From contig OZ360229.1 in the NCBI GenBank assembly GCA_977017645.1, positions 98,146,001 through 98,210,000 on the forward strand: a stretch of DNA of 64,000 nucleotides, given 5' to 3'. The position numbers and the translations under genes are program-made. Shown here piece by piece: positions 15,690-44,181 of the stretch. The stretch is from Torpedo marmorata (Eukaryota). Under the pieces are notes generated by a model, which worked only from the letters and a program-made list of their open reading frames with translations, made no database searches and was not told the DNA's origin. Each line of letters starts with the position of its first letter. The stretch's first letter is position 1.

Positions 15690-15720
<31 letters not shown>

Positions 15721-15929
15721 GAGCACAACCAGTCCTGGGCAAGTTAACTCTTTCAGTACATGGTCCCAGTGTGCACTCCAAAAGACTTCATCCTTTCTGC
15801 TGACTGTCCGCAGTCCAAATGGTCAGTCATGGTCCATAACACCTCCCATCCACAAAGAAAATTTTTGTCTGCAAGACCAAAATTTTCGAAATTAATTGAG
15901 GTGTCACAATAAAAACAAAACCCACAATG

Positions 15930-18238: not shown

Positions 18239-18249
18239 CTCTTATCTCA

Positions 18250-19771
18250 CTCCTATTATAACAGGTCCTTCCACCAAAGCTGAGTTCAACACTATTTTGT
18301 GCAAAGGAATGGACTCAACATCACCCCCAATTCCTTTAATTAAATTCATTTCACCGGTGTCTGTCTTCACAAAATTCCAAGACACTATCTAACACAATGA
18401 CTGAGCAGCTCCAGTATCTCACAAGATTTTCACTGGAACTTGCTTTGATCCTGCCTTAACTGAAACAAAACCATCAGTCACAAAAGGTTTAAATACATCC
18501 CTAACTTTGTCAGTAAATTTGTCTCCTTCCTGGGTGTTATGCCTCTTCTCACTCTGAATACAAGCATTAGGTTTTGCATCCTTTTCTCTCTTCTTTTTCA
18601 ACACTGGACAGCTTGCGAGCATATGACCAGCCTTCCTACAGTAGTGGCAAATGGGTCCCAAAGGGTTTTCCCTTTTCCACTTTCCTTCATCTCTTTCCTT
18701 AACACCACTTCACAATTTACTTTCCACTTGCTTGGGATTATCCACAGTGCCCTTTTGGAAAATTCTGCCTGACGTCCACTTAGGCTTGTGGGTTAAAGCA
18801 TATTCATCTGCTAACTTAGCTGAATTTTGCCAAGTTTTCACCTCCTTTTCATTTAAGTATGTCTTAATATCCTCAGGAACACACCTTTTTATCTCCTCAA
18901 TTAGTATCAATTCTCTCAATTGATTGTAATCATGGTTCACCACCTTAGATGTGCACCACCGGTCAAAACACACATCCTTTTCATAGGCAAACTCTGTGTA
19001 AGATGGGGTTGCTGATCTTTTTAAATTTCTAAACTTCTGTCTTTCAGCCTCTGGAACTAACTCATAAGCCTGGAGTATAGCCTTTTTCACCATTTCATAA
19101 TCAGCAGCTTGCTCCGTGGTAATAAGCTTGCTGAGCTTTTCCTTTAATTACACTTTGTAACATAAGAGACCATTGGTCTTGTGGCCATTTTAATTTCACA
19201 GCCACCTTCTCAAAATGCTGGAAGTACTTATCTATTTCCACTTCCTCAAATGGAGGAACCGACCTAACTTCCCTACTGGCCAAAAACCTCTCAACCGGAC
19301 CACAAATTTAATCTTGGTGCTCTTCTTGTCTCCTCTCATTTTCCAACTTAATCTTTTCCAGCTCATATTGCCTAATTTTCTCCTCGTTCTCTAATCTTTT
19401 TTGTTCTCTAGCTGCCTCCAAGTCTAATATCTTTTGTTCCAATTCCCTGTCTAATTTCTTTTGTTCCAATTCCCTGTCTAATTTCTTTTGTTCCAATTCC
19501 AATTTCTTTAGTTCCAATTCCCTGTCTAATCTCTTTTGTTCCAACTGTATGTTTTCAGAAGGTTTACCCTTGGGAAACTGCTCTAACACGCTCTCCTCAA
19601 ACTTTTTCCCTTTTATATAGTATTTGGCTATTTTTCTCACAATCTCTGCCTTTTCATTGATGGTTTTACAGAAACAATGCCCAACTCTGTTGCTATAGCC
19701 ATTAACTGTTCCTTTTTAGGCTTTTTTAAAGTATCAGGTTCAGGTGATTCAAAAAATTTTTACACATCCAT
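18250..19771 (-). pseudogene. Gmr1-like gag (SCAN-like capsid domain, CCHC knuckle) and protease
   Basis: VKKAILQAYELVPEAERQKFR...LRELILIEEIKRCVP...KLADEY; CHYCRKAGHMLASC; IL*DTGAAQSL; several frameshifts; 27-bp LDRELEQKK repeats at ~19420-19545. Confidence 0.8.
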
Positions 19772-20887
19772 TGTCGCTGGTTTTTGTTACACACTCACTA
19801 GCTTTTAATTAGCTTTACAAAACGAATGTCTTAAACCAGACTAGGATTACTTCAATTACCAAGATGGAGCTTGATTCAATCCCGGACGAGCCCCCAATTT
19901 GTTACAAACACAAACCAGCAATGACAGAAGACGCAATGCAAAAGGGGTAAAATTGAAATTTATATTTATTAAAGACAATTAAACATATAATTTCTTAACA
20001 ATTAACCCCACTATAAACGTCTATAAACACTATTCTTATCTAAAGAGTGTGTGTGTGTGTGTAAAGCCCAGACCATTACAGTCTGTGCCCAACCCTCATG
20101 TAAAAATGGAAAACCTACCCCAAAACCCCAGGTCAGTCATAAAAATAAATCAGTCCCAAAAATACAGTCCACAAAAATCACTCTCTATGTTCAGGGACCA
20201 AATTCAGCTCTGTGCGCTGGCACGAAGGACTTCTTAATGAACTTTGGAGAGAGAGACAATGACTGTTTTGGCTTACGAATGCTTGGCCTGCTTTTCTACC
20301 CTGATGACTTTCCCTTTTGTTTGGTGCACGAGGATTGTTCTTCCCAAATCAGTATACCACTGATTGAGGCATGTACTTGGATCTCACAGCCTGTCTCGCT
20401 GATCTCACGCCTGTTCTCCACTAAAGTTGCTTTTCCTCAGGATTTTGCTGATACAGGAGGCCATGTGCTATTCTCCCAGCCTTTCTAGCTGGAATGCACA
20501 AGCCTGGATTTGTCTGTGTTGCTCCAGCCTCTTGCAACACCAAACTGGATGCTTTTTGCAGAGATTTGCACCTGCTTTTGCAAAAGTGCAACAAAGTATC
20601 TTTTCACAGCCTATCTCTCTCTCTCTCTGTGTCTCTCTCTGAGTACAACCAGTCCTGGGCAAGTTAACTCTTTCAGTACCTGGTCCCAGTGTGTTCTCCA
20701 AAAGACTTCATCCTTCCTGCTGACCGTCTGCAGTCCAAATGGTCAGTCATGGTCCATAACATTAGCCACACAGTCATGGGTGTAGAGAGTGGAGCAGTGG
20801 GCTAAACACGCATCCTTGAGGTGCGCCTGTGTTGATTGTCAGTGAGGAGGAGACTTTGTGTCCGATTCGTACTAACTGTGGTCTTCT

Positions 20888-23800
20888 TTTTTTTTATTTT
20901 TTTTTTATTATTTTTTTTTTTTTTTTTAAATATTTTATTTAAATTTTTAAATCACACATTACATAAAATAACTTGCATATAATTCTTAAAAAATACATGT
21001 GATTACATTTTCTCCCCCCCTCATCCCACCCTCCCCTCCCTAACCCCTATACCCCCCTAATCTAATTAAAATATATATAAAATAATAATAGTAAAGAAAA
21101 AAAGAGAAAGTAGAGATAGAAAGATAGAGCGAGGAGTCAATAAGCTTAAAAAAAAAAAACACTGATATATCTTAGAGGTTGTTTCGCCGGTAGGTCTAAT
21201 ATCCAGAGAATTCACAATGTTAAACCCATAATCCTCGTATATGGGCCCCAAATTTTTAAAAAAGAATGATATTTATTTCGTAAATTATAGGTAATTTTTT
21301 CCAATGGTATACATGACCGTAACTCTGCATGCCATCGTTCTAAATTTAAATCAACATCCGATTTCCAAGTAATAGCTATACATTTTTTTGAAATTGCTAA
21401 TATTATACGTAAAAATTCTACTTGATACATATTCAATTTATGTCTAATACTAAATTTTTTAATGTCTCCAAATAAAAATAACATAGGATCCATTGCAATT
21501 TCAACATTAAAAATTCTTTCTAAAAAATTCTTAACTTTCAACCAAAAATCTTGAATCTTTGAACATGACCATGTACAATGTACAAAAGATCCTATTTCAG
21601 TTTTACATCTGAAACACGTATCTGATAACGCTGGGTTAAATTTCTTCAATTTTCTAGGTGTCAAATACAATTGATGAAAAAAATTATATTGTACTAATCT
21701 ATATCTCACATTAATAACTTTTGTCATACTTAGTTTACATAAATCTTTCCAATGTTTTTCATCTATATTAACATTCAAATCAAACTCCCATTTCAGTCTA
21801 GACTTATGCTCTCCTACCTTAGACATCTTTCTTTGAAACAACTTATACATTTGTGATATAAATTTATTAACATTAACTTTGGTAATTAATAACTCCAATT
21901 CACTTTGTCTTAATACTGTTAATTCATTCCCTAATCTTTCAATCAAAAAAGCTCTAACTTGAAAATAAACTAACATTGTATTATCTAATATATTAAATTT
22001 TTCCTTTAACCTCTGAAAGGTAACAAATTTACCTGCTTCAAAACAATCTTTTAATGTCTTAACTCCCTTTAAAAACCATAACTTAAGTAATTGATTATCC
22101 ATAGAAAATGGTAAAAGTGGATTCTGATATATTGGTGTATTTAAAGAAATTAATCCTTTTTGACCTATCTCCTTATCTACTTGCGACCAAATTTCCAACA
22201 AATGTTTAATAATTGGTGTTTTTTTCTTTTTAAGTAATAATAATTTAGGATTCCATTTATAAATAATATCTTCTTTATGTATTTCTCCCATATTATTCAA
22301 TTCTATATTAATCCAAGCAGAAGTTTTATTCAAATCAAAAAATTCATTAATAAATTTTAACTGAGCTACTTTATAATAATGTTGAAAATTAGGAAGTTGT
22401 AATCCTCCCATTTCATAATTCCATGTTAATTTATCTATACTTACTCTTGCTAACTTTCCTTTCCATAGAAATTTCCTAACAATAAATTTTAAATCTTTAA
22501 AAAATTTATTTGGAATACCATAAGGAATCGATTGAAAAAGATATTGAATTCTTGGAAAAACATTCATTTTAATACAATTTACTCTTCCCATCAACGTTAT
22601 AGGTAAGTCTTTCCAAAGCTCTAAATCTTTTTTTATTTTAATAAGTAAAGGTGTATAATTTAATTTATACAAATTTTCCAAATTTGTGTCTACTTTAACT
22701 CCCAAATATTTAATACTCTCTGTAGTCCACTTAAAGTCTGTAACTTCTTTACATCTAGTATAATCCCCTTGTGATAAAGCCAAAATCTCACTTTTATCTG
22801 AGTTAATCTTATATCCTGATATCTCACCATATTCTGTCAATATAATAGCCAATTGTTGAAGTGATGTAACAGATTTTGTCATATATATTAATACATCATC
22901 TGCAAACAAACTAATCTTGTGCTCTTCCCTACCAACCTTTATTCCCATTATATTTATATCTTCTCTAATCATTTCTGCTAAAGGTTCTATTACCAACACA
23001 AACAAAGCAGGTGATAAAGGACATCCCTGTCGTGTTGATCTTGATAACAAAAACTTTTGCGATATCTGTCCATTTGTAACTACTTTAGCTGTAGGTTCCT
23101 TATATATAGTTTTAATCCAATTTATAAAATTATCTCCAAATCCAAATTTTTCCAAAACCTTAAATAAGAAATTCCACTCTACTCTATCAAATGCCTTCTC
23201 TGCATCCAGTGTTACTACCAGTGGTAGATCTTGTTTCTTCTTATATACATTAATTAAGCTTAACAATCTAGCTATATTATCTTTCGAATATCTATTTTTA
23301 ATAAATCCGGCTTGATCCGAATGTATTAAATGTGGTAAACATTTAGCTAATCTATTTGCTAAAATTTTCGCCATTATCTTATAATCTACATTTAGCAATG
23401 AAATAGGCCTATAAGATTCTGTTTTTAATACATCTCTATCTTTCTTTGGTATAACCGTAATAATAGCATTTAAAAATGTCTTCGGTAATAAATGAGTTTC
23501 CTTAACTTGATTCAATACCTCCATATACAAAGGTATCAATAAATCTTTAAATTCTTTATAAAATTCTACTGGAAATCCATCATCACCTGGAGATTTACCA
23601 CTTCTCAACGTCGATATTGCTTCAGTAACTTCTCTCATCGTAAAAGGTAAATCCAAAGAATATTTACTTTGAACAGTCAATTTAGGTAAAGTAATTTTAG
23701 ATAAAAATCTATTTATCTTCGTTTCATCTTGATCTGTCTCAGATCTATATAAATTCTGATAATATTCTTTAAAAGATTCATTTATTTCTTGTGGCTTATA

Positions 23801-25204
23801 TGTTATTACCCCCGTATTTCTCTTCCTTATAGCATTAATTGTTTTAGAAACTTGCTCTTTTTTCAATTGCCATGATAACACCTTGTGTGCCTTTTCCCCT
23901 AGTTCATAATATCTTTGTTTTGTCCGTACTATCAATTTTTCAGTCTTACGCGTTTGCAATAAATTATAATGTAATTTCTTCCTTACTAAACGGTTCCTCT
24001 TAAGAATAGACCGGTTTCTCTGTGAATCTTTTTCCATAATTTCAATCTCCTTCTCTAATTTTTCTTCTTCTCTCAAATAATCTTTTTTTATCTTTACTGA
24101 AAAACTTATTATTAAACCTCTTAAATAAGCTTTCAAAGCTTCCCATACCATAAATTTATCATCTACCGAATTATTATTTACTCTTAAAAATTCCTGAATT
24201 TCTCGTCTCATATATTCACAAAAATCCTTCCTTTTCAATAATAAAGAATCAAATCTCCAGTTATAAATAGTTTTTTCTTTCTCTGGAATTATACACGTCA
24301 TTAATAAAGGTGAATGGTCCGAAATTATTCTTGCTTTATAAGATATCTGTGTTATTCTTTCCTGAAGTTGTGAAGACAATAAAAATAAATCTATCCTAGA
24401 AAAAGAATTATGTCTAAATGAGTAGAATGAATAGTCCTTCTCCCTAGGCTTTAATTTTCTCCAAATATCCACCAAATTTAAATCCTCCATCAAATTAACT
24501 ATCTTCTTCACTATTTTTGGTCTAACAGCTGTTTTAGAAGTTTTATCCATTATTGCATTTAAACAACAATTAAAATCACCACCAACTAAAATATTATCTT
24601 TGGCATCTGATAAATGTAAAAAAGCATCTTGAATAAACTGTTCATCATCTGGATTTGACACATACAAATTCATAAGAGTCCAAAATTCCGAATAAATTTG
24701 GCAATAATCAAAACATATCTACCTGCCGTATCTATCACTGTCGATTGTATCCTGAAGGGCAACTTTTTATTAACTAAAATAGCAACTCCCCTTGCTCTAG
24801 AATTAAATGATGAAGCTACAACATGTCCTACCCAATCTCTTTTCAATTTCTGATGTTCAACATCCGTCAAATGAGTTTCTTGTAAAAAGGCTATATCTAC
24901 CTTCAATTTTTTTATATATGTCAAAGTTCTTTTCCTTTTAATTGGATTGTTAAGCCCATTTATATTAATACTAACTAAGTTTATACTCTTAGAATCCCCC
25001 ATAATAAAATAATAATCCTTCCCTGTCAATCAGATCCACCAGCGTATCCCTCTTACTCATTTGCATATATATGTCCTCCTCTATTAGAATGAAAAAAAGA
25101 AATATTAAAATAAGAAAAAAAACCCCTGTAAAGAACACTGGTCTTCTATTCCCAGTGTTACCCCCCTCCATTGTTCGAGAAGCGGTTCTCGCCGCTAAAG
25201 TGGT
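20888..25204 (-). mobile_element. L1-clade LINE, 5'-truncated (ORF2 plus 3' UTR and poly(A))
   Basis: 15-bp TSD taactgtggtcttct (20873-20887, 25205-25219), poly(A) tail on minus strand at 20888-20928, G-rich 3' UTR tract. Confidence 0.93.
21212..25029 (-). pseudogene. L1-clade ORF2: APE endonuclease, RT and cysteine-rich C-terminus, one frameshift near 24700
   Basis: SININGLNNPIKRK..FLQETH, GGDFN, SDHSP, YRPISLLNVDYK, TRQGCPLSP, FADD, CFRCKTEIGSFVHCTWSC. Confidence 0.92.
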
Positions 25205-26231: not shown

Positions 26232-27540
26232 ATATCATATCTAAAGGAGACCAGTCAGACATGATTATTACAGCCTATAGTGAAGAATTTGAAATACCAT
26301 AAGTGAATGAATTGACAATAAAAATAGAAAATGTTAGAACCATCTCGCAGACATTATCAATGGGGAGAGAAAATAAAGCCGACTTTTCAGATGAAGAATC
26401 CTTCATCAGTGTAAGAGCCGTAGGCTCGTTAACTTACCGTTGTTGCGGCGCTCCGATGTCTCGTCGGGCCTTGGAGCGCTCGCGTTGTTATGTAGGCCGT
26501 CCTCGGAGCGCTCCGAGGCCACGTCGGGCCATGGAGCGCTCGCGTTGTTCTGTAGGCCGCCGTCGGCCCGTTTCTTTGATCTGCGCATGCGCGGGAGTGC
26601 CGACGGACACATGCGCAGTATGGAGTGACGTCATTGTGCGCGTGGGAGGCTGGGAATTGTAGTATGCGCGGTGGAGGGTGCGCAGAGCCATTAGGAGTGA
26701 CGGAGGATGCGCAAATCAAGTTTAGAGAGAGAGAGAGAGAGATAGAGAAGGAAAGGAAAAGATGTATGGAGGGTGAGTCTGGTCTCCACATCTTTATTGA
26801 CCGTTTTATTGACCGTTTTATATCGTTTTATAATGTTTTTATAACTTCAACATCATCTCCAGTGTTTCATATCGTTTTGGAATTGTTTAAGGAATAATTT
26901 AAAGGAACTCATCATACATCGTTTACAAGAACTGTTTATATTAAAGTCATTGAAGATTACTGCAAGTCATGTGTGAAAATAAAGGTTTTGAACATATTGG
27001 ACTTTGTTAGTAAATTAATTAAAAACGCGTCAAAAGCAAGGACCACACTTAGCCTCCAGGTGACTATTGGTGGAGCGAAGTCACCATTACTTATAGTCAA
27101 TAAAGGGCTGGCTGTTTGGAACAGAAGTTTGAAGGAAAGAAGATAGAAAAAACTCTCTGTGCTTTGGACTGATATAAATTGGTGGCCATTTTGGAGATGC
27201 CTCGAGTTGGGGGCAGTTTGTAATCCACTTCCATCTGCCATGAATAACAGCCAGAGAGGGATTTAAAGCTTCAAATCTTATAATAAAGTGTCCTATAAAT
27301 ACGTTGGAGAAACCATTTTTGGAAAATCAGTGATATTAGTGACGGATGTTGTGGTTGAAACTCGTTTGTGGATTGCAGCACATTACAGTCATTAGAAGTG
27401 GTAGGCATAAGTCTGTGGACTCCTTCTGTGTATCTTTAGCAAGTAAGAACACAGATTGGAATTGCTGCCGCTGGTCCATTGGGGACTGTTGTTTGGCTAG
27501 TGTTGTGTATGCTTGAAGGAAAGAGGAACAAGACGAGTAA

Positions 27541-30500
27541 AATGGCCGCAGCAGCCACTGATACAGCAGCTACTGATTTATCAGCAGCTGACGCAGCAAC
27601 CGCTGATGTTGCTGTTGAGGACCAACGTATTGAAGACATGAAGGTTGCGGATATTAAAGAAGAATTGAAGCGACTGAATAAGGACATAAGTGGAAATAAA
27701 AAGGTTCTTATTGAAAGATTGAAGCAGGCAAAGGATGAAGAGGCAGCTTTATTAGTTGAACAAGAAGATAACTTGGAAATGGCTGAAATTGTGTCAACAA
27801 ATGATGAACAATTTGAATTGGATAAAGAGGTAAGTATGAAGACAACATATGAACTGCAGGACGAAATACAAGCAAGTGACAGTGTCTCAAATGCTGAAAG
27901 CAGGAGAAGCAAAAGAAGTTCTGGTTCAAGCTCCAGAGTTTCTCGTACTTCAAGTTCTGCATCGTCACGTACAAAGGTTGATGTTAAATTGGCCGCTCTT
28001 CTTGCACAACAAAAAACGCTTAAGGATAAATTTATATTAGAACAAGAGGAGGAGCAGCTAAGACAAAATGAGAAGCAGCTAAAGGAGCGGCTAAGACAAG
28101 AGGAGGAGCAGCTAAGACAAAAGGAGGAGCAGCTAAAGGAGCAGCTAAGACAAGAGAGGGAGCAGCTAAGACAGAGAAAAGAACTGCAGGAGCTGGAAGC
28201 AAACATTGCTATTGCCAAGGCAGAAAAGAAAGCAATAGAAGGCTCAATGGTATCTGGTGCTAGCAGTAAATTATCTAAATTGTCTGATAATAAAAGGTCA
28301 TATTTAAAAAAGGAGTCACAGGAAAAGAAACCAACCAAAAGGATAGATATTTTAGAACCAAGGATACAAAACTTACATATACAACGTCAAACCTTTCAAG
28401 AGCATTTTGGTATCGAGTCACATGTACCAATGGTAACATCTGAAAGCAAAGCTGCAGATTGGGTTCGGTCGAACGAAGTAGCTTCTTTGTTATGTGAGTC
28501 AAGCATCAGAAATATGGAAGAAACTACACCAGTAAGGTATCCAGATACATTGCATGCAACAAGAAACAGTGAACAGAGCAATGTATTGTCATCCAAGGAA
28601 AGACAAAATGAAATTGCTGCATCATTGTTTCAGTTACAGTCTCTCTCTTCTTTACCCAAGAAAGAGATACAAACTTTTGATGGTGATCCACTTCAATATC
28701 AATCATTTATGAGATCTTTCAAACGCAATATTGAAGATAAATGCCAAGATCGTGATGAATGTCTTTATTATTTGGAAATGTTTACAAAGGGACATCCAAA
28801 AGAACTGGTTAAAAGTTGTAAACAAATGTCTTCAGGAAGAGGATTAGACAAAGCTAAGGATTTATTGGAACAATATTTTGGCAACAAGCAACGAATTGCT
28901 TTAGCTTATATGGATAAAGCTCTTAAATGGACATCAATAAAACAAAATGATGTAAAGGCTCTGCAAGAGTTTACTCTGTTTTTAAGAGGATGTTGTAATG
29001 CTATGGAAGAAATCGATGGTATTCGTGAGCTTGATGTGCATAGTAATATGCGAATCATTTTAGAAAAATTACCTTACAAGGTGTGGGATAGATGGAGAAA
29101 TTTGGCTTGTGATTTACAAGTAAATTATGGTCGAAAAATTACTTTAAAGGATTTGGTAAATTTTCTTGAACGACAAGTGTATGTTGAAACAGATCCACTA
29201 TATGGAAATACAAGAGATAATTCAATGGGCAAAGATGTAAGAAAGTCTAATTCACAGTCTAGTCCGAAAGTGAAAAGGAGTACATTTGCTACTAATGTGC
29301 AAGTTATAAGTAAAGAAAATGACAAAGTAAATAAGGAAAAGGAAAGTTTGCCTAATGAAAGGAGTTGTTTGTTCTGTAAAGGTGGACATGCTTTGGAAAT
29401 GTGTTTACGATTGGAAAAGAAGGAACATAAGGAAAAGATCGCTTTCTTAAAGGAAAATGGAATATGTTTTAGCTGTCTGTGTAAAGGGCACATCAGTAAA
29501 AACTGCGAGAAGCGAATTAATTGTAAAATATGCAATTTGAAACATCCTAGAATTTTGCATATCCATAACAGAAACAAGGAATTGGAAAAGGAGCAAACAG
29601 AAACAAAGGAAACAACAGAAAATAATGTTATAACCTCGGTTCAGACAAGTGGTCTTACTGGGGCCGGGGTGAATAACTGCAAACTTTCAATAGTACCTGT
29701 ACAAGTCAAGGCCAAGAAAGGGGATGCAATAGTAAAAACATATGCATTTCTAGACCCAGGCAGCACTGCATCTTTTTGCACGGAAGGACTAATGAATAAA
29801 CTTAATATTCAAGGAAGAAGATCAAAAATTATGTTAAAAACCATGGGTCAAGAAAAGGTTGTTGAAACTAACATTGTTTCAGGCTTAGAGGTTGCTGGAT
29901 TGGATGACAAAAAATTTTGTGATCTTCCAAGTGTATATACTCAGAAGACTATGCCTGTGAATGAAGGAAATATTCCTCATCAAAGGGATATCCATCATTT
30001 AGCTTATCTATGGAAGGTTTATTTACCTGAAATTAATTCTGAAATAGAAATGCTGATTGGTTCAGATGTGCCAAAGGTTTTGGTACCAAAAGAAGTAATA
30101 GAGAGTAAAAGGAATGGACCTTACGCTATTAGAACCATACTTGGTTGGGCAATCAATGGACCAATGGAAAGAAATAATGATATTGCTCAGGAACAGGTAG
30201 CGATAAATGTTAATAAAATTTCAGTTGAGAAATTTGAAGAGTTAAGAGAAGAGCAAAAAACCGTGAATAAGAAAATTACTTATGAAGAAAAGAAAACAGA
30301 TCAATGTAACAATAAATCAGTGGTATTTAAAACAACATTGAAGAAATTAATTTCGTCAGAAATGGATGAAAGTGAAGTATTAGAAGATATTGCAAATAAT
30401 ACTATTGATCATTCATGTGTAATTGAATCAGATACAGGAATAAAACAAGTGACTGAAAACAAATCTGAATGTAGATTTTGTAGTTCAGAGATTACAATTG

Positions 30501-31231
30501 ACAAAGCTAATGAAGAATTATTGCAATGTGATGTAAAAATGGAGAACACAGAAAATTGTGCTGATGGAATAAAGAATAATAATTTAATGCAATTGAATCC
30601 AGAGAACAAAATGATGAAAGGGGAATTGGAAATATTAGATAATCAAGAAAACAGTAAACAGAAAGATTTAATTGTAAGTAAAACTCGCAAAGTCAGAAAG
30701 CGGAAGAAAAGAATAACTGCTGAAGAAATGAATACAGTTATTGAGGAAAGGGATTCAGCATTATCAAAATGTAAAAGGTTGGAGGAAGAGATTAATGTTT
30801 TGAAAGAGATCAAGTTATTGGTTAATAACACAAAACAGTTAACTTTTAAAACCAATCAAGAATGTAAATTGAATGTTCAACAATTAACAATGCAGAAAGA
30901 ATGTGAAATTGCATTGCAGAAATGTAACAAGCAAGACGAAGAAATTAAAAAATTTCAAGTATGCCGCAACAGGATTGACAATGGAACTATCAATGTATCG
31001 CATGATATTTTGACTTCAGATCAAATTATTAATTTCTCGGAAGGAGCTGAGACTGAATTGAAAGTTGCGAAATTGGATTTAGCATTGCAGGAAAGAGCAA
31101 TAGAAACCAGAGTGGTTAAACAGACCTGTTTAAAATCGAAAGAATCAGATAAATATTCAAATTCTAATTCTAAGAGTTTAAATTCTTCACATGAGAAGTG
31201 GAATACTGAAGAAAGGAATAAAGTGAAATGA
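27541..31231 (+). CDS. BEL/Pao SAP-Gag-protease polyprotein fused to a MIPOL1-like coiled-coil C-terminus; no RT/RNase H/integrase
   Basis: Open frame 27479-31231; SAP-like MKVADIKEELKRLNKDISGNKKVLIERL, FDGDPLQYQSF (DUF1759-like gag), three Cys/His knuckles, AFLDPGSTASF protease, PYAIRTILGWAINGP, then RITAEEMNTVIEERDSALSKCKRLEEEI. Confidence 0.88.
30362..31130 (+). other. MIPOL1: captured, intronless MIPOL1-like host gene segment within the BEL ORF
   Basis: RITAEEMNTVIEERDSALSKCKRLEEEI...NNTKQLT...NQE...LTMQKECEIALQKCNKQDEEI matches recalled vertebrate MIPOL1 RITAEEMSALIEERDAALSKCKRLEQEL...NNMRHLT...NQE...LSMQQARETAVQQYKKLEEEI. Confidence 0.75.
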
Positions 31232-31339
31232 CGTGCTGAAGAAGTGCCTTGTGTTAAATTCAAAAGAAAAACTGTATCTATTTTGTCTGAGGAGGATTTG
31301 AAGTTTACTGGTTGACGTTTTAACTCAAAGATTATAGAG

Positions 31340-31530
31340 ATAAAAGAACTTTAAAGAGACATTGTGATTGTTATGGATGGTTCAACTTCAAGAAATTCCT
31401 GGTTACTTGGAAAAGATTATTGAGACTTTTCAAGACAAAGAGGACTTGTGCGTCAAGTGCGAATTAAAACTAAGACTGGTTTTTCGAAACAGAACTATTA
31501 ACAAGGTCTGCCTTTTGTTGGAGACAGAGG
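31340..31530 (+). pseudogene. decayed BEL integrase C-terminal remnant (DUF5641-like)
   Basis: DIVIVMDGSTSRNSWLLGK / GLVRQVRIKTKTG / INKVCLLLE in shifting frames. Confidence 0.75.
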
Positions 31531-32519
31531 AACTTTGATAAATATAAACTGACTTTATTTGTTGTTGTATATTTCACAGGTTACAGACTTTTGTTGAATC
31601 AGAGTTATGGTAAACTCTAGATTTATGAAGAAGGAAGAAAGAAGATTTGTATTGTTTTGAATATTATGGTTATTATTATTTATAGTGTAATTATTATTCA
31701 AGACATTACGTCTAATTATAATAATTAGGGGCCGGTGTAAGAGCCGTAGGCTCGTTAACTTACCGTTGTTGCGGCGCTCCGATGTCTCGTCGGGCCTTGG
31801 AGCGCTCGCGTTGTTATGTAGGCCGTCCTCGGAGCGCTCCGAGGCCACGTCGGGCCATGGAGCGCTCGCGTTGTTCTGTAGGCCGCCGTCGGCCCGTTTC
31901 TTTGATCTGCGCATGCGCGGGAGTGCCGACGGACACATGCGCAGTATGGAGTGACGTCATTGTGCGCGTGGGAGGCTGGGAATTGTAGTATGCGCGGTGG
32001 AGGGTGCGCAGAGCCATTAGGAGTGACGGAGGATGCGCAAATCAAGTTTAGAGAGAGAGAGAGAGAGATAGAGAAGGAAAGGAAAAGATGTATGGAGGGT
32101 GAGTCTGGTCTCCACATCTTTATTGACCGTTTTATTGACCGTTTTATATCGTTTTATAATGTTTTTATAACTTCAACATCATCTCCAGTGTTTCATATCG
32201 TTTTGGAATTGTTTAAGGAATAATTTAAAGGAACTCATCATACATCGTTTACAAGAACTGTTTATATTAAAGTCATTGAAGATTACTGCAAGTCATGTGT
32301 GAAAATAAAGGTTTTGAACATATTGGACTTTGTTAGTAAATTAATTAAAAACGCGTCAAAAGCAAGGACCACACTTAGCCTCCAGGTGACTATTGGTGGA
32401 GCGAAGTCACCATTACTTATAATCAGACTTGGGAAATGTGTAGAAAAAAAATAGAAACAGAAAAGAAATAAGAAACAAATTAAAATAGAAAGGTGCAGCC
32501 ACATCAATGGAGAGAAAAA

Positions 32520-34080: not shown

Positions 34081-34979
34081 ATCACTTTTAATTTTCCTAT
34101 GACAGTGTTAAGTGAAGGAATCTAAGATGGGTAAGGGTCATGATCCCACTAAATAGTGAAATCAACATGAAGGACTGATAATTAGCTGCATGTGTACTTT
34201 TTCAAGTATAGTTACAAAGACAATGTAGGCAACACATACAGCAAAATGACATTGTGTTAATTTAGAGAAAAAAATCTTTAAATTGAGCTTTATCTAAAGC
34301 ACTTAACATGTGTTAGGAAAAAGTTAATGTTCTGCTGTTAGAATGTGCTTTTAAAATGCTCTTTGAAATAGCAGCTGCATGCCTGTGCAGACATGTGAAA
34401 CCAAAAACCAGACAGGGGGAGTGTTTTGCAATTAAATGCTAGAATTGAAATAGGGTAGTGGCAAAAGCTTGCGATAGGGGCGAACGTATGGTACTGCAAA
34501 CAAAGAAACAGTGATGGGGGATGAAATGCCTAAGAAGTACATGATGATAAGGGGTAGAACAGAATGTGAACTCATGTAACCTGTGAGTAAAATAAATGTA
34601 TAAAAGGCTGCTACACTGATGGAAAGGCACTCAACTGCTCTGACAGCAAGTTGAGTCCAAATCTGCAGACTTGTTACAATTAAAAGTCAACCGCTGCTGC
34701 TTTTGCTGAGACTCCGTGTGAGTTCTTTTCTGACAACTTGGGGGCTCGTCCGGGATCCCCACTCCGGTCGTGAGGGTCGAGAGAAGGGACATCGGAGAAG
34801 GTGCACCCCGCCGAGTTCGGCGGTCCCCGACTCCTTGCTCGTCGTACCCACGCGGCTTGAGCGAGTGATATCCGGACAGCGCAGAGCGGAAGACTGGGAA
34901 GAAGTAGAAGGACGGTCCAGGGCGGCACACCGGGTAAGTGAGTACGACGGTACTACTAGGATAAGGTGTGACCGGGCGA

Positions 34980-35256
34980 AAGGGAGCAAAAGGAGAGTTC
35001 GGGTGTATTCCCGAAGGTACCTCCAGATTGTCCCCTAGACAGGCTCAAAGAAAAGGGAGCCGAAGGAGAGTTCGGGTGTATTCCCGAAGGTACCTCCAGA
35101 TAGTCCCCTAGACAGGCTCAAAGAAAAGGGAGCCGAAGGAGAGTTCGGGTGTATTCCCGAAGGTACCTCCAGATAGTCCCCTAGACAGGCTCAAAGAAAA
35201 GGGAGCCGAAGGAGAGTTCGGGTGTATTCCCGAAGGTTCCTCCAGATAGTCCCCTC
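34980..35256 (+). repeat. 73-bp tandem repeat (~3.7 copies) covering the gag 5' end
   Basis: aggagagttcgggtgtattcccgaagg starts at 34991, 35064, 35137 and 35210. Confidence 0.9.
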
Positions 35257-35262
35257 GGGAGA

Positions 35263-36330
35263 ATGTTAGCAAATTGGGATTTGGGACGGACGAGAGGAAA
35301 GCAGAAAATGAAAATGATCGGGTTTAGTAGTTTATGGTCAAAGCAACCGATAAAAGGGCAGTCAGTTTGGTGGCCACCATTTGGGTCAGATGAGGGATGG
35401 GTAAGGCAGGCTCTGAATGTGTATGTAAATTCTAAGCCTCATCCGCAGGCGGATGAAAGGGAATATGCCTCCTGTTGGGTCCCAGGGCCCGGGGATTCAA
35501 CAAGAAGTTTTAAAATGCAAACGAAGAAGGACGAAGGAGAAGCCCCCTGGGAAGTATTAAACCACCTACCTCCTCCTTACACCCCTCCACCACTAAATCC
35601 TGAGGTCTCAGCCCCTGAAGCAGTGCCCTCTCATGAAGAAGTAAATGGACAGGAAAGGGGAGAGAGAGAAGAAGGGAGGGATCCCCCGGATGACAGCTGC
35701 CGAAGGAAGATAATGACAAGGGCTGAGACCAGACGAGGGCTGGAAGACGAGGACGGGGCAAAAATATGCCCATTAAGAGAGGTACCTATGGGAGGTCCCG
35801 ACGGAGGGACCGGGTATGTGAATGTGCCTCTAACAAGTACAGAGGTGCGAGCCTTCAAGAAGGAAACTAAAAATTTACTTGAAGATCCAATGGGACTAGC
35901 GCAACAATTAGACCAGTTCTTGGGTCCCAACATATATACCTGGGATGAAATGTATGCCATAATGGGAACGTTGTTTTCCGCCCAAGAAAGGCAGATGATC
36001 AGACAGGCGGCCATCGTGGTATGGGAAAGGGAGAGGCCGCAAGGGGCAGCAGTAAACGGAGAGCAGAAATTTCCCCTAGTGGATCCACGATGGGATAAGC
36101 AGACCGAGGAAGGACGAATGTTGGAACAAGTACTGGCTGAGTTTCAATGCAGTCCTGAAAACCAGTTACTACAATATATAGATGATTTACTTCTTTCCGG
36201 ACCTGAGGAGGGTGAAATCAGAGAAGACACTATCAGACTGCTAAATTTCTTAGGGGGCAAGGTCTCAGGGTCTCCAAGACAAAGTTACAATTTGTGGAAA
36301 AAGAAGTCCGATATTTGGGCCATGTATTAA
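35263..36330 (+). pseudogene. gag: truncated Gag (MA, PPPY late domain, CA N-terminal part) fused to RT YIDD segment
   Basis: WPPFGS, PPPY, PLREVP, then WDKQTEEGR joined directly to MLEQVL...LLQYIDDLLL at ~36118; NC and protease absent. Confidence 0.85.
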
Positions 36331-38711
36331 CTAAGGGAAATCGCTGCATCACGTCCGAAAGAGTGGCTGGAATTATTAAACTCCCCATACCACAAAGTAA
36401 AAAGGAAATACGCCAATTTTTGGGACTAGTGGGCTATTGCCGAATATGGATCGAAAATTACACACCACTGGTTAAGTTCCTATATGAAAAACTAGGAGAA
36501 GAAGAAAGGAAGGTTCGATGGACAGAAGAGGAGGAAAGATTGTTTGAAAAGATAAAAGGACAGTTGATAAGAGCACCAGTATTGGCTCTCCCCGCCTTGG
36601 AAAAGCCATTTCAACTATATGTCAATAATGCTGAGGGAATCGCGTCTGGAGTCTTGACCCAAGAGAAGGGGGGAAAGCGCCAGCCAGTAGCCTTTTTATC
36701 TAAAATGCTGGATCCGGTATCCAGAGGATGGCCAACCTGCATCCAAGCCGTGGCCGCCACTGCAGTACTAGTGGAGGAAGCACGGAAACTGACGTTTGGA
36801 GGAAAAATCACCGTGTACTCACCACACTCAGTGAGTGCCCTGTTGGCACAAAAGGCCCACCGGTGGCTAACAGATTCCAGGATCTTGAAATATGAGATCA
36901 TTCTGATGACCGGCGAAGACCTGAATTTCACGAAGGATCCCAACTGCAATCCGGCCCAGTTCCTATACAGGACGGGAGGAGAGGAAGGGCCAGAGCATGA
37001 TTGCCTTGAGTTGGTGGACCTGCAGACCAAGAGTCGTGAAGACCTACAGGAGGTGCCCCTGGAAGAGGGACAGGAGTTATATATTGATGGCTCCTCCAGG
37101 TGCATTGATGGAATACGACATAGCGGATATGCTATCATTGACGGGAAAACTGGAAAAAGGGTGGAATCAGGCAGGCTCCCTGCCAGCTGGTCGGCTCAGT
37201 CATGTGAACTGTATGCCCTCCAGAGGGCACTGAAATGTCTGGAGGAGGAAGTCGGAACGATATATACGGATTCTAAGTATGCCTATGGCATTGTCCATAC
37301 GTTTGGGAAGATATGGAAGGAGCGAGGATTGATTACAGCACGAGGAAAAGGTCTCGCACACGAGCAGATGGTGGGTCTGACCCTAGAAGCCCTGGCATTA
37401 CCCACAGAAATTGCAGTGGTACATGTTCCGGGTCATCAGAAGGGACACTCTCCAGAGGCCGTAGGAAATCGACTAGCTGATGAAGAAGCTAAGCGGGCAG
37501 CCATTGAAGAATCGGTACAACTTTTAACTCTGATACCGGTGAGAGAAAAGCCGACGAAACTACCGGTCTTTACGCAAATGGAGATCGATAAAATGAACCA
37601 ACTAGGAGCCCAGAAGGATGCCGATGGTAAATGGAGGATCTCCGACGGAAGACAAGTACTGAACAGGGAAGTTACCCGCAACATTCTTCAGCAGCTACAT
37701 CAGCAAACCCACTGGGGAGTCCAAGCCCTATGTGATACGGTGCTCAGGGAATATGCATGTAAAGGAATCTACACCCTGGCTCAGCAGGAAGTGGTGGGAT
37801 GCCCCATATGCCAAAAGGTAAATAGGAAGGTGATGCGAGCTACTCCCGGAGGAGGACAGCCCCTGGCCCTGAGACCATTCCACCGAGTCCAGATCGACTT
37901 CACCGAATTGCCCCCGGTACAAAGGTGGCGGTACTTGTTGGTAATTGTGGACCATTTCACAAGATGGGTAGAGGCATATCCAACCACCAAAGCAGATGCC
38001 CCAACAGTAGCCAGAATATTGTTGGAGAATATTGTCCCGAGATATGGTGTGATTGGGTCAATAGATTCTGATCGTGGAACACACTTTGCATCCAAGACAC
38101 ACCAGCTTATCTGTGATGCATTAGGTATTGAATGGAAATTACACACTCCTTGGCATCCGCAAAGTTCAGGACGAGTCGAGCGAATGAATAGCACTTTAAA
38201 AACACAACTTACTAAATTGATGACGGAGACAAAATTACCTTGGACCAGATGTCTTCCTATTGCATTACTGCGGATTCGTACTGCGCCCCGTAAAGACATT
38301 GGACTCTCTCCCTATGAGATGTTGTTCGGACTACCATATTGGAGCCAAGTAGAGGGATATCCTACGTTGCAAGGGGGGGATATCTTTATAAGGGACTATT
38401 TACTGGCATTGTCTCGTTCCTTTGCAGAGTTGCGGAAAAAGGGGCTTTTGGCCCAGACTCCCCCATTGGATTTCGCTCTACACCAGATTGTGTCCGGAGA
38501 TTGGGTCCTTGTGAAAACTTGGAAACCAGAAAAACTCCAGCCGCAGTGGGAGGGGCCTTTTCAGGTCCTATTGACTACTGAGGCGGCGGTACGAACGAAA
38601 GAAAAAGGGTGGACCCACGTTACACGTGTAAAGGGGCCAGTGGAAGGCCGAGAAAAAGTGTGGACTTGTGAGAACACGGACTCCCCTTTGAGACTTATTT
38701 TGAAACGATGA
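36294..38711 (+). CDS. pol: ERV Pol C-terminal part: RT thumb/tether, RNase H, integrase (open for 805 codons)
   Basis: FLGLVGYCRIWI, YIDGSS, YTDSKYA, GNRLAD, HQQTHWG..CPIC, QIDFTEL, SDRGTHF, SSGRVERMN, WEGPFQV. Confidence 0.85.
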   Translation: MEKEVRYLGHVLTKGNRCITSERVAGIIKLPIPQSKKEIRQFLGLVGYCRIWIENYTPLVKFLYEKLGEEERKVRWTEEEERLFEKIKGQLIRAPVLALPALEKPFQLYVNNAEGIASGVLTQEKGGKRQPVAFLSKMLDPVSRGWPTCIQAVAATAVLVEEARKLTFGGKITVYSPHSVSALLAQKAHRWLTDSRILKYEIILMTGEDLNFTKDPNCNPAQFLYRTGGEEGPEHDCLELVDLQTKSREDLQEVPLEEGQELYIDGSSRCIDGIRHSGYAIIDGKTGKRVESGRLPASWSAQSCELYALQRALKCLEEEVGTIYTDSKYAYGIVHTFGKIWKERGLITARGKGLAHEQMVGLTLEALALPTEIAVVHVPGHQKGHSPEAVGNRLADEEAKRAAIEESVQLLTLIPVREKPTKLPVFTQMEIDKMNQLGAQKDADGKWRISDGRQVLNREVTRNILQQLHQQTHWGVQALCDTVLREYACKGIYTLAQQEVVGCPICQKVNRKVMRATPGGGQPLALRPFHRVQIDFTELPPVQRWRYLLVIVDHFTRWVEAYPTTKADAPTVARILLENIVPRYGVIGSIDSDRGTHFASKTHQLICDALGIEWKLHTPWHPQSSGRVERMNSTLKTQLTKLMTETKLPWTRCLPIALLRIRTAPRKDIGLSPYEMLFGLPYWSQVEGYPTLQGGDIFIRDYLLALSRSFAELRKKGLLAQTPPLDFALHQIVSGDWVLVKTWKPEKLQPQWEGPFQVLLTTEAAVRTKEKGWTHVTRVKGPVEGREKVWTCENTDSPLRLILKR

Positions 38712-40369
38712 AAATATTATGCTTTTTGTGTTTCTTCATACTTTTGACGTTATGTTATAAAGATGTCAAGGGGGAAAGAAAGAAAGTGCGGGAAAGAAGG
38801 GGGGCCACGGTTATGGCACCCCCAGCTGGGTCAAATGTAATAATACCCCTAGAATGCTTTAAGAATAAACAAATAAAGTGCTATACATATGATGAAGTAC
38901 AGCACCCGTATTGGTTAGTGAAAAATGCTAAGCCAGGTAATTATAAGATCTTTGCGCTCTGTCCCAGGGAAAACTCATTCTGTGTTTCATATGGAAAAAG
39001 GGAAAGGTTAACATGTCCAAAGAACCTTTTACCTTGTGATAATAGCTCAGACCAGAAGAAAGAAAATAGGATAATAAAAGGAGAAGGAGCTCCTAAAAGA
39101 AAGGAGAATCTTTTTATTGATTTGGCAACACGTATAGCGACTAGCTTGAATGTGAGTGGATGTTGGGTCTGTGGAGGACCATTTTTGAGTGAACAATGGC
39201 CCTGGGTGGGTGAGCCGGTAAATGTATGGCAGCTCCTGGAAAAGAATTGGACAAACAGACGGGATCCGGGAGAAGAAAGTTGGAAATTGACCAACTTTCC
39301 AGAGGGACAAGTATGTGTTGAAGGTGGTGGAAGTGTAAAGGTGGGAGTAAGCCCTTGCAAAAATGTTAAGTTGGCAAAAAGCGATGGCTACCGGACATGG
39401 AGGCCAGAGGCCCCTATGTGGTATATATCAGGGAAGGGGAAAGATAATTGTACCCGACTCTCTGGGAAAGGGGAATTATGGAATTGCAGTGGATCGAGTC
39501 CTTTTGAGGGAGTGCCTATAGTACGGAATGTGTGGAGAAATGCAAGGGAAGGGGGACCTGCCCCTGAGGGTCTTTTCTGGATATGTGGTAATCAAGCATA
39601 CACTAGGTTACCCTCCGGCTGGGCTGGTGTTTGTTTTTTTGGTATTATTCGACCAGAATTCTTTCTTCTTCCTGAGGAGGATGGGAAAGATTTAGGGATA
39701 AAGTTGTTCGATTCCCTACAACGAGAGACCCGTGGCATAAAGGTGGGGGAATGGGGTGATGAGTGGCCCCCGGCCCGAATTATTGAATATTATGGACCTG
39801 CGACATGGGCACAGGATGGGTCCTGGGGTTATCGCACACCCATCTATATGTTAAATCGAATTATTCGACTCCAGGCGGTGGTTGAGATAATTACGAATCA
39901 GACCGCACTGGCATTAGAGTTATTGGCCAACCAACAGACCCAGATGAGAACAGCCATTTACCAGAACAGGTTAGCTCTTGATTACCTTTTGGCCTCAGAA
40001 GGGGGTGTTTGTGGAAAATTTAACTTGACCAATTGTTGCCTAAAGATAGACGACAACGGTAAAGCGGTGCTGAAAATTTCGGACAAGATCCGAAGGCTAG
40101 CTCATGTGCCCGTCCAGCGTTGGAATTCTTTGGGTAAACTGAGTTGGCTCGATGACCTCTTTGGAGGGACATGGTGGAAAACAGCATTGCTAATGGTAGG
40201 GGGCATATTGTTAGTGCTCCTCTTGTTACCCTGCATTATTCCCTGTTTCCGCATCCTTATAACTCGAATTGTGATGCAAGTGATGCAACCAGGGGAACCT
40301 GCTGACCCTGTGAAAATGTTGCTCCAAAGAACCCCAGAGGGAGGGGGTTGGACCCCCTGGAACCCTTAG
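38708..40369 (+). CDS. env: intact retroviral envelope glycoprotein, ERV3/HERV-R-like gamma type
   Basis: Signal peptide, CWVC motif, furin site RETR, WPPARIIEYYGPATWAQDGSWGYRTP, ISD YQNRLALDYLLASEGGVC, CGKFNLTNCC, hydrophobic TM and cytoplasmic tail; ATG overlaps the pol stop (atga). Confidence 0.93.
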   Translation: MKILCFLCFFILLTLCYKDVKGERKKVRERRGATVMAPPAGSNVIIPLECFKNKQIKCYTYDEVQHPYWLVKNAKPGNYKIFALCPRENSFCVSYGKRERLTCPKNLLPCDNSSDQKKENRIIKGEGAPKRKENLFIDLATRIATSLNVSGCWVCGGPFLSEQWPWVGEPVNVWQLLEKNWTNRRDPGEESWKLTNFPEGQVCVEGGGSVKVGVSPCKNVKLAKSDGYRTWRPEAPMWYISGKGKDNCTRLSGKGELWNCSGSSPFEGVPIVRNVWRNAREGGPAPEGLFWICGNQAYTRLPSGWAGVCFFGIIRPEFFLLPEEDGKDLGIKLFDSLQRETRGIKVGEWGDEWPPARIIEYYGPATWAQDGSWGYRTPIYMLNRIIRLQAVVEIITNQTALALELLANQQTQMRTAIYQNRLALDYLLASEGGVCGKFNLTNCCLKIDDNGKAVLKISDKIRRLAHVPVQRWNSLGKLSWLDDLFGGTWWKTALLMVGGILLVLLLLPCIIPCFRILITRIVMQVMQPGEPADPVKMLLQRTPEGGGWTPWNP

Positions 40370-40949
40370 CACATTCTAAAAAGAAAAAGGGTGGAATTGT
40401 TAGGAAAAAGTTAATGTTCTGCTGTTAGAATGTGCTTTTAAAATGCTCTTTGAAATAGCAGCTGCATGCCTGTGCAGACATGTGAAACCAAAAACCAGAC
40501 AGGGGGAGTGTTTTGCAATTAAATGCTAGAATTGAAATAGGGTAGTGGCAAAAGCTTGCGATAGGGGCGAACGTATGGTACTGCAAACAAAGAAACAGTG
40601 ATGGGGGATGAAATGCCTAAGAAGTACATGATGATAAGGGGTAGAACAGAATGTGAACTCATGTAACCTGTGAGTAAAATAAATGTATAAAAGGCTGCTA
40701 CACTGATGGAAAGGCACTCAACTGCTCTGACAGCAAGTTGAGTCCAAATCTGCAGACTTGTTACAATTAAAAGTCAACCGCTGCTGCTTTTGCTGAGACT
40801 CCGTGTGAGTTCTTTTCTGACAACATGTAATTTTGAGGTGTTGTCACAAATGTAATCGAGGACCATGACGACCAATGTGTTTATTTCATAGCTTGAGTGT
40901 GTGATATCAGCCAGCACACCCGGGATTTCCGACAGGGAAAGCCTCAAGA

Positions 40950-41080
40950 TAACCTCATCTGAAAGACCACACCTTCAATAATATAACACTCCCCTCGATG
41001 TTTGCAAGTTTTATCCTAGATTTTTCTTCCCAAGGGCCTGAAATGAGATTTGAGTGTAAATCCATATGATTCAAAGGCTA
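40950..41080 (-). repeat. ancient DeuSINE-like fragment
   Basis: ctcatctgaaagaccacaccttcaataatataacactcccctc resembles the recalled reverse complement of the Deu-domain SINE consensus. Confidence 0.4.
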
Positions 41081-41549
41081 ATTCTAAAAACACTTGAGGG
41101 TTGACATAGAGAAAAAGCACACAAAACAAACAGCCCACCAAATCTGTGCGAGATCATTTTGTTCGAGCAATCTCAAGTTATTCCCACTGGTCCCCATGCT
41201 TCCTGTTTCAAGCCTTCCACATTCCACGTGACAGCACACTTGATGCTCAAACAACATGAACGTTTATCAATTATTTCCCCAAACAGAATGGACAATACAG
41301 ATGAGTTAAATCTCCACTCTAACTCTTTGCAGACCTGATGAGAAAAGTGGAGGCACCAGGAGAGGGCGCGAATGTGGAACAACAAGGCCACCAAGAAAGA
41401 TATACAAGTAGAGAGGAGAAATAAACGGAAACAAACTGCGCGGAAGAGAGTGTGAGAGAATCATGTAAGTGAAACCAATAATAATACCTTCCCAGCTCAT
41501 TAGGGAGCAAAGTTAGTGCACAACATTTGGCTTGGAGAGAGAGAAAAAA

Positions 41550-41846
41550 AAGATAGTCACGTGACCGCATTTCTTAGCCCTCGCCGCCCCAAACTTAAAT
41601 TAAAATTCGAAATTGCCTCCAATTTCTTTAGTTTATAGTCAATTTGTGGAGTTTCATGAGGTAACCAAGTTTTTTTTTTAAATCGGGCGCGATTGCTTTA
41701 ATGATTGATGAGATATATTCGTTGCTGGCCTGATGACGTCGCGGCCGAGGGGAAGATGCCATATTGGAATCGGGCAGAGCTGACAGACAAAAAAGGGAAT
41801 AAATATAAGAGAAATCGGAGCGAAATCGCCGCCATCACGGGTTTGT
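41550..41846 (+). promoter_or_regulatory. DDX6: probable DDX6 promoter and non-coding first exon
   Basis: CpG-enriched unique sequence with gtcacgtgac (41556-41565), tgatgacgtc (41731-41740), YY1-like cgccgccat (41827-41835) and possible donor cgg/gtttgt at 41840/41841, upstream of DDX6 coding exons. Confidence 0.5.
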
Positions 41847-43453: not shown

Positions 43454-44181
43454 CAGTAAAACCCCTGGTATCTGGCATCCATGGGGATGCCGGATAAGTA
43501 TATTTTCTGGCTGCTTGACACTTGCTCTTACAATGCATTAAGGATAAACTGTTTAAAAGACAAAAATACTTGCTCTTACAATGCATTAAGGATAAACTGT
43601 TTAAAAGACAAAAATACTGTACTTGCACTGAACAAACCTCACTTGCATGAATATATAAACCTTAAAGCATTTAACTTTATTTCAGTCACATTCTTTGAAA
43701 ACATTTAACCCTCGCTGCATTTGCAGGTTTCTCTGTCTCCATGGAGCCGCCCAAAAGACGAACAATAACATTTATAGATAATAAACCCCCCTCCCCCAAG
43801 TTTACAGATAAACCTTTGATCAGGGTGATTCTTACTCAGCAGGGACAAGGAGACACTTTAAGAGAGTCACCCCAACAGTGAGCGGCATCAACCTGCTCTT
43901 CATACTGGGTGACGCCATTGCTGTTTCACACAACTTTATTCAAAAAGTTATTAGGAGCAAAGTACCACCAAGGCACTCTGCTGGCTGAATATTTGCTCCC
44001 ATCTTCATAGTTTGTGTTACTTCAGAGAACATTTACTTTTACAATTTTAAACTTGCTGCGTATTTTTTACCTATTATTTTATTCTTATTTATTAAAATTC
44101 TTAAATTTATTTTCCTCAATTTTTTTGCCGTTTGCTCGAGGCTGCCAGTTGTTTGAATTCTAGATACCAGGTGTTTTACTG
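43454..44181. mobile_element. Tc1/mariner (Tigger-like) MITE
   Basis: TIRs cagtaaaacccctggtatct / agataccaggtgttttactg; internal ~46-bp tandem duplication at ~43519-43617. Confidence 0.75.

Follow-up and report, generated by a model that had tools for sequence, protein, structure and literature searches.

Spliced pieces of BRCA1, MIPOL1 and Elongin A, the MIPOL1 exons in back-spliced order, replace pol in a BEL/Pao-derived element of Torpedo marmorata

The element and its reading frame

The window analysed here is a stretch of 64,000 nucleotides from Torpedo marmorata (assembly GCA_977017645.1, contig OZ360229.1, forward-strand positions 98,146,001 to 98,210,000). It harbours a 6,012-bp retroelement on the plus strand (26410-32421), in which one open reading frame (ORF) of 1,229 codons lies between paired long terminal repeats (LTRs) of 686 bp (26410-27095 and 31736-32421). 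The LTRs are 100% identical and the element is bordered on either side by a perfect 5-bp target site duplication (TSD), ATCAG (26405-26409 and 32422-32426), just as a preliminary description of this DNA had stated. In place of the pol region, spliced segments from three host RNAs (BRCA1, MIPOL1 and Elongin A) are fused in frame to Gag-protease. It is a non-autonomous derivative of BEL/Pao (Belpaoviridae) and not a full member, since reverse transcriptase (RT), RNase H (Peptidase_A17) and integrase are absent. The overall order is Gag-protease, BRCA1, MIPOL1, Elongin A, integrase tail, polypurine tract (PPT) and LTR, and each of the three captured pieces is read in its native frame.

The frame is open from 27440 to 31231 (1,263 codons) and yields 1,229 aa when counted from the ATG at 27542. 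The uninterrupted ORF of about 1,230 codons described earlier, with its succession of SAP domain, coiled coil, Gag, zinc knuckles and protease, was thus recovered. Two domains exceed the Pfam cut-off: SAP (aa 64-97, E 7e-9; 27629-27730), which is found in a pol-bearing partner too, and DUF1759, the BEL Gag core (aa 413-553, E 2e-6; 28676-29098), which is under purifying selection. Between them, a tandem 21/12-nt repeat of variable length (28042-28203) encodes an E/Q/K/R-rich coiled coil. Three Cys/His zinc knuckles (29366-29560) were read from the sequence. The match to the DUF1758 protease (aa 758-904) is weak and falls under the Pfam cut-off (E 0.073), yet the aspartic protease together with the BEL linker (29711-30256) is 92-93% identical to pol-bearing elements. 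Pfam detected no RT, RNase H or integrase family in the window ORF, in agreement with the absence of RT, RNase H and integrase core noted before.

BEL homology had been said to end after the motif GWAINGP; in fact it runs on to 30256, and helper-like sequence picks up again at 31356. The segment from there to 31735 comprises an out-of-frame integrase 3' tail, the 3' untranslated region (UTR) and the PPT, with 85-88% identity to pol-bearing elements when measured from 31356 to the LTR end. An integrase tail had been placed at 31340-31530; the out-of-frame tail is indeed present, but the end of the ORF and positions 31232-31332 belong to Elongin A. The 3' LTR contains a single AATAAA at 32304.

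BEL/Pao elements usually have TG...CA ends and a tRNA primer site. LTRs of the window element and of seven further fetched elements end with TG...TA, and a clean 5-bp TSD was also seen at five of these seven. The 10-nt primer-binding position (27096-27105) is complementary to a site within the element's own LTR: the 10-mer exactly complements 26792-26801, and the same holds for all eight elements examined. Self-priming is possible; no covariation was seen.

Captured host sequences and the exon H-exon B junction

To place the captured pieces, host genes were located in the same genome: MIPOL1 on C40, BRCA1 on C61 and Elongin A on C41. The best matches of all three pieces are batoid proteins. 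The 290-aa tail of the ORF matches 103 of 717 candidates, the best being stingray MIPOL1 (E 1.9e-24), so that the MIPOL1 assignment of the preliminary description holds. All 103 have one and the same pair of Pfam accessions, and where their names are informative they read MIPOL1 (one is called 'hypothetical', one bears an unrelated automatic name and many are unnamed). Host MIPOL1 exons were mapped within 400 kb of C40. DNA identity between the window and these exons is about 81% over 460 nt, the F-G part being best retained (127 of 143 nt same as host). Generic coiled-coil similarity was ruled out, since the DNA matches the genome's own MIPOL1 exons. When stingray MIPOL1 was compared with the genome, 91 matches were obtained, which are one host exon and 90 intron-less pieces; 30 of the latter were fetched, and each is about 75-85% identical to the window element at the DNA level. 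Introns of host MIPOL1 itself (C40:64,281,000-64,500,000) harbour five MIPOL1-bearing members of the family.

The order of MIPOL1 exons in the element is not that of the gene. The 3' part of exon F, exon G and exon H are spliced together at 30664-30969 and are followed at 30970-31123 by exon B (nt 1-74) and exon C (nt 23-99), an in-frame 81-nt deletion separating B from C. At 30969|30970 the donor of exon H (C40:64385712) abuts the acceptor of exon B (C40:64591881) exactly and in frame, with exon B lying 206 kb upstream. Old copies hold 587 nt of MIPOL1, which run from nt 48-171 of F through G, H, B and C into D, where 18 nt are included; at 30 old loci the aligned MIPOL1 part matches host at 92.5-96.8%. 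Unlike the H|B breakpoints, the two outer boundaries of the captured segment are located within exons. The junction is aligned ungapped in 60 of 60 loci, including the window, and is bridged without differences by an independent contig from a public run (X2 record 15). Linear continuation from H into exon I was ruled out by the score of 30970-31123, which is 116.5 against B+C and 20 against the linear next exon, with 36 at most in 500 shuffles. Exons A and I had no matches in 69 element loci, and no second exon B was found within 400 kb of C40.

Because the donor of H is joined exactly to the acceptor of upstream exon B, the junction corresponds to a back-splice, and the MIPOL1 piece is most likely derived from a circular RNA. 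The sequence features by which Dong 2016 (PMC4897178) recognised circRNA-derived copies are present here: a non-colinear junction at splice sites, exons resident in the circle only, and no duplication in 400 kb. The seven host exons B-H are all flanked by AG/GT and total 780 nt. The predicted B-H circle (C40:64591881-64385712) has a length that is a multiple of 3 and is stop-free over two turns, so it would constitute an endless reading frame. The earlier inference of a spliced, internally deleted MIPOL1 mRNA kept in frame thus stands as regards splicing and frame with Gag-protease, but not as regards exon order; the LALQERA motif, aligned there with QALTERA of vertebrate MIPOL1, comes from upstream exon C and not from the C-terminus of the protein.

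Instead of the single captured gene assumed at first, three were found. ORF residues 900-1263, compared with long proteins, matched 3 of 4,792 candidates, all of them batoid BRCA1 (49% identity, pairwise E 2e-37). The BRCA1 piece of the window (30252-30671) consists of two spliced and colinear host exon parts (C61:25497366-229 and 25488540-243) at 75-85% DNA identity. The weak MIPOL1 N-terminal echoes reported after 30362 are BRCA1 sequence, and tblastn matches that hinted at MIPOL1 aa 241-324 ahead of exon F proved spurious: no matching DNA exists and the stretch is BRCA1. The piece lacks both RING and BRCT domains. Its joint to MIPOL1 runs from mid-exon to mid-exon with a 2-nt overlap.

The Elongin A remnant (31114-31332) corresponds to host C41:38994689-846 and 39005551-611, spliced; about 38 codons lie in the ORF and the remainder beyond the stop. 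In old copies, Elongin A follows MIPOL1 at greater length (Pfam PF06881, E 1e-14; PDB 8oev_M, E 1e-38; 650 of 715 candidates match), and its Pfam domain lies beyond the portion retained in the window. In old copies, up to four exon parts of BRCA1 and up to five of Elongin A are spliced together in colinear order, with about 90-98% identity to host (91-98% for BRCA1), of which the window element carries trimmed versions at 75-87%. BRCA1 pieces span two to four exons and Elongin A pieces up to five; introns are gone.

The 5' joint occurs in two variants, one with longer BEL/BRCA1 overlap (loci L054, L040, L056) and one with shorter overlap (L050, L031, window), and 3' joints differ between old and young copies; taken together, this points to repeated trimming and re-recombination. 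In a further observation, the model of Narcine BRCA1 isoform X2 starts with a retroelement gag-like sequence in place of the RING domain, which also matches flank DNA of family locus L037. This is probably an annotation artefact or an exonised element.

A young family, its pol-bearing partners and selection on the frame

We wondered how widespread the element is. A query with the ORF tail gave 44,840 first-look candidates and a query with stingray MIPOL1 gave 40,394, as opposed to 6,618 for BEL RNase H; these figures of about 40,000-45,000 are first-look candidates, not copy numbers. Six MIPOL1-bearing copies and two pol-bearing stretches were met in 600 kb fetched for host genes, a density of the same order as the candidate counts. 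Scored tail matches, chosen by protein score, are 95-100% identical over 290 aa in 135 of 135 cases, and 113 of them belong to frames no shorter than 1,200 aa (counted by hand). In four complete young copies, the two LTRs agree at 99.5-100% and the frames measure 1,272-1,356 aa. Old copies, on the other hand, form a star with tips of 0.02-0.06, which is the topology of an early burst; intermediate (87-92%) and current subfamilies followed. Together with the common H|B junction, this supports the earlier proposal of an old capture in a young non-autonomous family that is still spreading. Three contig sets (X1, which may be RNA, and X2 and X3, both from one sample) cover the element in 30, 30 and 28 of 30 bins, and bridge both the protease|BRCA1|MIPOL1 and the H|B joints; they attest presence only, and one set may be the assembly's own source. 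Same-strand copy pairs about 5.4-6 kb apart (C179:1325682/1331118, C1:132031727/132037223 and C11:25285582/25291559) suggest tandem elements with a common LTR. No fusion protein was found in other species: 35 representative matches each cover the MIPOL1 or the BRCA1 part alone, the inspected ones being ordinary MIPOL1 or BRCA1 and one unrelated repeat protein, which is a weak negative, as proteins of transposable elements are often unannotated.

An autonomous helper with the same LTR had been anticipated. Among 150 scored BEL RNase H matches, 11 lie in frames longer than 2,000 aa, as counted by hand. Of the three pol-bearing elements examined, one (L148) combines RT, RNase H and integrase domains within one frame. 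All three have the LTR ends, primer site and PPT of the window element and are 89-93% identical to it up to 30256; identity resumes at 31356 in two of the three. Since LTR ends and about 93% of gag-protease are in common, these elements are likely to serve as helpers. In the protease tree of 30 natural copies, the three partners nest inside the young cassette-bearing clade (support 100/97 and 100/99), and old cassette copies are only 76-78% identical to them. Backbone and cargo therefore have different histories, presumably through repeated recombination between co-packaged RNAs.

The selection on the chimeric ORF proposed in the preliminary description was then resolved into frame and residues. 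Compared with 30 old copies, the ratio of nonsynonymous to synonymous change (dN/dS) is 0.36 for Gag core, 0.37 for zinc knuckles and 0.31 for protease; for BRCA1, MIPOL1 and Elongin A it is 0.67, 0.66 and 0.84, respectively, all three intervals spanning 1. From host to window, dN/dS equals 0.91 in MIPOL1 and 0.65 in BRCA1. The number of amino-acid changes from host, 59 in MIPOL1 and 55 in BRCA1, is close to the neutral expectation computed with the observed mutation bias (54.9 and 55.8), and no shift toward conservative substitutions (BLOSUM) was detected in either part between host and window. The frame behaves otherwise. The 290 captured codons accumulated 178 substitutions with no stop, as against 10.2 expected, and none of 20,000 simulations remained stop-free; 6 of 6 indels relative to host are multiples of 3, compared with 9 of 51 (not all independent) in non-coding DNA. 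As judged from these patterns, selection holds the frame open across the cargo while residues are hardly constrained. The cargo thus looks like in-frame filler and not like a transduced oncogene, which speaks against the oncogene-like role of MIPOL1 protein suggested earlier. In the course of divergence, the GC content of captured DNA (30252-31231) fell from 0.35-0.38 in host to 0.30; G>A and C>T changes dominate (81 of 178) and C>A is frequent (25).

Other mobile sequences occur in the window. A long intact endonuclease-RT frame of 1,168 aa, which we take to be of L1/Tx1-like non-LTR type, lies on the minus strand (21212-24718 and 24670-25029). Three direct-repeat pairs, at 8269-12694, 15000-20761 and 34311-40697 (95%, 93-96% and 100% identity), are LTR-element-like and unlike the MIPOL1-bearing family.

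Origin and persistence of the cassette

We consider it probable that pol was lost to copies of co-packaged spliced BRCA1, back-spliced MIPOL1 and spliced Elongin A RNAs and that selection has since kept the frame open. BEL reverse transcriptase would have switched template onto these host RNAs inside particles. The source of MIPOL1 would have been the circle of exons B-H, of which 587 of 780 nt were copied across the back-splice junction. The element would make its own Gag and protease and thereby package its own RNA, and mobilisation would take place in trans, with pol-bearing BELs giving RT and integrase. Through recombination, the cassette has come to be framed by more recent gag-protease and LTR sequence of helpers. 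As to the open frame, when translation extends to 31231, some 1.1 kb remains before the AATAAA, versus about 2.0 kb after a post-protease stop; the partner has about 0.7 kb. A shorter 3' UTR would shield unspliced genomic RNA from nonsense-mediated decay (NMD) triggered by long 3' UTRs. The cargo may accordingly persist as in-frame filler because reading to 31231 shortens the distance to AATAAA and limits NMD.

Several points weigh against this account. Avoidance of NMD is conjectural, and our expectation is divided about evenly between it and its alternatives, a protein role or another translation-linked effect. Circular origin and element transcript are deduced from genomic DNA in this species. 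Short overlaps (microhomologies) are seen at joints and may be coincidental. In old copies (L054, L050, L103 and others), a 20-nt linker lies between nt 17 of MIPOL1 exon D and Elongin A. It begins at TG, it matches old LTR starts at 12-16 of 20 positions (nine LTR starts), and the join is exact in 22 of 35 old loci; this LTR-like linker suggests that at least one joint arose from nested integration and not from a simple template switch. With regard to selection, MIPOL1 dN/dS between the window and five unselected recent copies is 0.43 [0.22-0.95] (five pairs, all including the window branch), with a value of 0.18 [0.03-0.46] in a single pair, while counts by distinct alleles give 0.58/0.51, near the 0.59/0.45 of protease in a small sample. 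A weak recent constraint on the MIPOL1 part at protein level is thus possible, and the signal of constraint in Gag and protease may be partly inherited from helpers via recombination.

The linker bears most directly on a stepwise assembly at the DNA level, in which retrocopies or one-gene BEL derivatives, together with a BEL inserted in the MIPOL1 piece, were later fused by deletions and template switching explains only part of the joints. We regard this as somewhat doubtful. The BRCA1-MIPOL1 joint with its mid-exon ends and 2-nt overlap does not favour it, neither a poly(A) tract nor a TSD of LINE type was noticed at the joints (without systematic search), and no one-gene intermediates turned up, none having been sought genome-wide. 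Such an assembly would be compatible with circular origin of MIPOL1. That origin is itself at issue if the H-to-B order came from linear RNA with repeated exons or trans-splicing, from RT switching between two MIPOL1 mRNAs at a common AG, or from an ancestral duplication of the exon block. The capture amounts to less than one turn, and sequence by itself cannot separate a circle from exon repetition; exons A and H both end with AG, and Dong 2016 (PMC4897178) notes other routes to non-colinear junctions. Nevertheless, such sources are quite unlikely in our view, as both breakpoints lie exactly on splice donor and acceptor with outer ends mid-exon, nothing from outside the circle was captured and only one exon B was seen in the 400 kb. 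MIPOL1 circRNAs, possibly of other exons, are moreover listed in mouse (PMC9888537) and human (PMC8783515).

The recent constraint mentioned above would be accounted for if the MIPOL1 coiled coil were a working part of the polyprotein, either a C-terminal arm for dimerisation or assembly that replaces RT-integrase, or a means of interference with host MIPOL1 or BRCA1 partners in the manner of a transduced oncogene, with an early burst of change followed by constraint. Apart from the ratio of 0.43, which drops to 0.20 (biased low) when copies are chosen by the protein score of their tails, the good retention of F-G is in line with it, and so are deletions, which trimmed BRCA1, exons B and C and Elongin A and left F-G-H untouched. 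Change from host to window is, however, neutral in number and kind, the BRCA1 piece has neither RING nor BRCT and the Elongin A domain is outside the kept part, so that such a role appears unlikely. A broader proposal, that a circRNA captured across its back-splice and fused with BRCA1 and Elongin A became a main genome-expanding family whose coiled coil has since acquired a function within the particle polyprotein, we hold to be quite unlikely. If true, it would mean that a protein module has an exon order which the host possesses in circular form alone, in a family that outnumbers its helper several-fold.

Relation to known systems and significance

Oncogene-transducing defective retroviruses have gag in frame with spliced host sequence that replaces pol, and depend on helpers. 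The MIPOL1-bearing family resembles them in the in-frame gag fusion replacing pol and in the putative helper with common cis-signals. It differs in that no env was seen, spread is in the germline, residues are unconserved on the long branch, and functional domains of BRCA1 and Elongin A are absent. In its mode of working, the family is comparable to such a virus or to Bs1 of maize. The latter is an LTR element whose chimeric ORF contains partial exon sequence from three unlinked host genes and which shows secondary retroposition, according to passages of Tan 2016 (PMC5131818) and a review (PMC13317346). In contrast to the family described here, Bs1 is found there in 1-5 copies and does not keep one of its three pieces in frame. 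The present family retains all native frames and includes a back-spliced piece; it is a BEL/Pao derivative in a vertebrate host, with first-look candidates that number tens of thousands.

Capture mediated by BEL elements as such is already published, since LTR-mediated retrocopies in animals include a mosquito retrocopy flanked by BEL18_AG (Tan 2016, PMC5131818). The relevant passages of that work report partial spliced mRNA in place of the internal ORF, multi-gene chimeras and further rounds of retroposition. Corresponding features are present here: intron-less partial mRNA lies between LTRs and switch points are repeated across copies, as in all 60 loci with the H|B joint. The published copies are, by contrast, very young or decaying, and the word 'circular' is absent from the main text; long-term selection on an open Gag-fusion frame and exchange of helper backbones do not figure in those passages. 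Mouse circRFWD2 pseudogenes share with the MIPOL1 piece a non-colinear junction at splice sites, restriction to circle-resident exons and association with an LTR element (MMERVK10C-int; 33 high-confidence copies), but were described without in-frame gag fusion or full element anatomy (Dong 2016, PMC4897178). Here, the copy of a circle lies within a complete LTR element with TSD, in frame and alongside pieces of two further host RNAs.

A preprint (bioRxiv 10.64898/2026.06.26.734816) puts MIPOL1 at the head of the five parental genes with most retrocopies in cartilaginous fishes. It links retrocopy abundance to non-LTR elements and germline expression, and its main text has no matches for 'circular', 'back-splic', 'BRCA1' or 'ELOA'. 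If a related ray is in that set, the MIPOL1-bearing family may explain the rank. No description of this family was found in our literature search, which lay outside the repeat libraries (Repbase, Dfam) and most subscription journals. What is new is the combination of an in-frame back-spliced RNA, a single Gag fusion that unites three vertebrate genes, a very high copy number, and selection that acts on the frame and not on residues.

The mechanism of circRNA retrotransposition was called mysterious by Dong 2016 (PMC4897178). The present element offers an anatomical answer, as it holds a back-spliced RNA in a full LTR element together with TSD, helper and intermediates. Selection on the frame is here separable from selection on protein sequence, and could be tested on tens of thousands of natural copies without engineering. 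In such genomes, read mapping and retrocopy counts of BRCA1, MIPOL1 and ELOA can be expected to be swamped. For the ray itself, the MIPOL1 piece would represent a fossil record of an old germline circRNA, and the family shows how three vertebrate genes were taken up serially into a single frame, with very large expansion. If candidate counts approximate copies, 40,000 elements of 6 kb would make up, as a rough estimate, about 4% of the 6.2-Gb genome.

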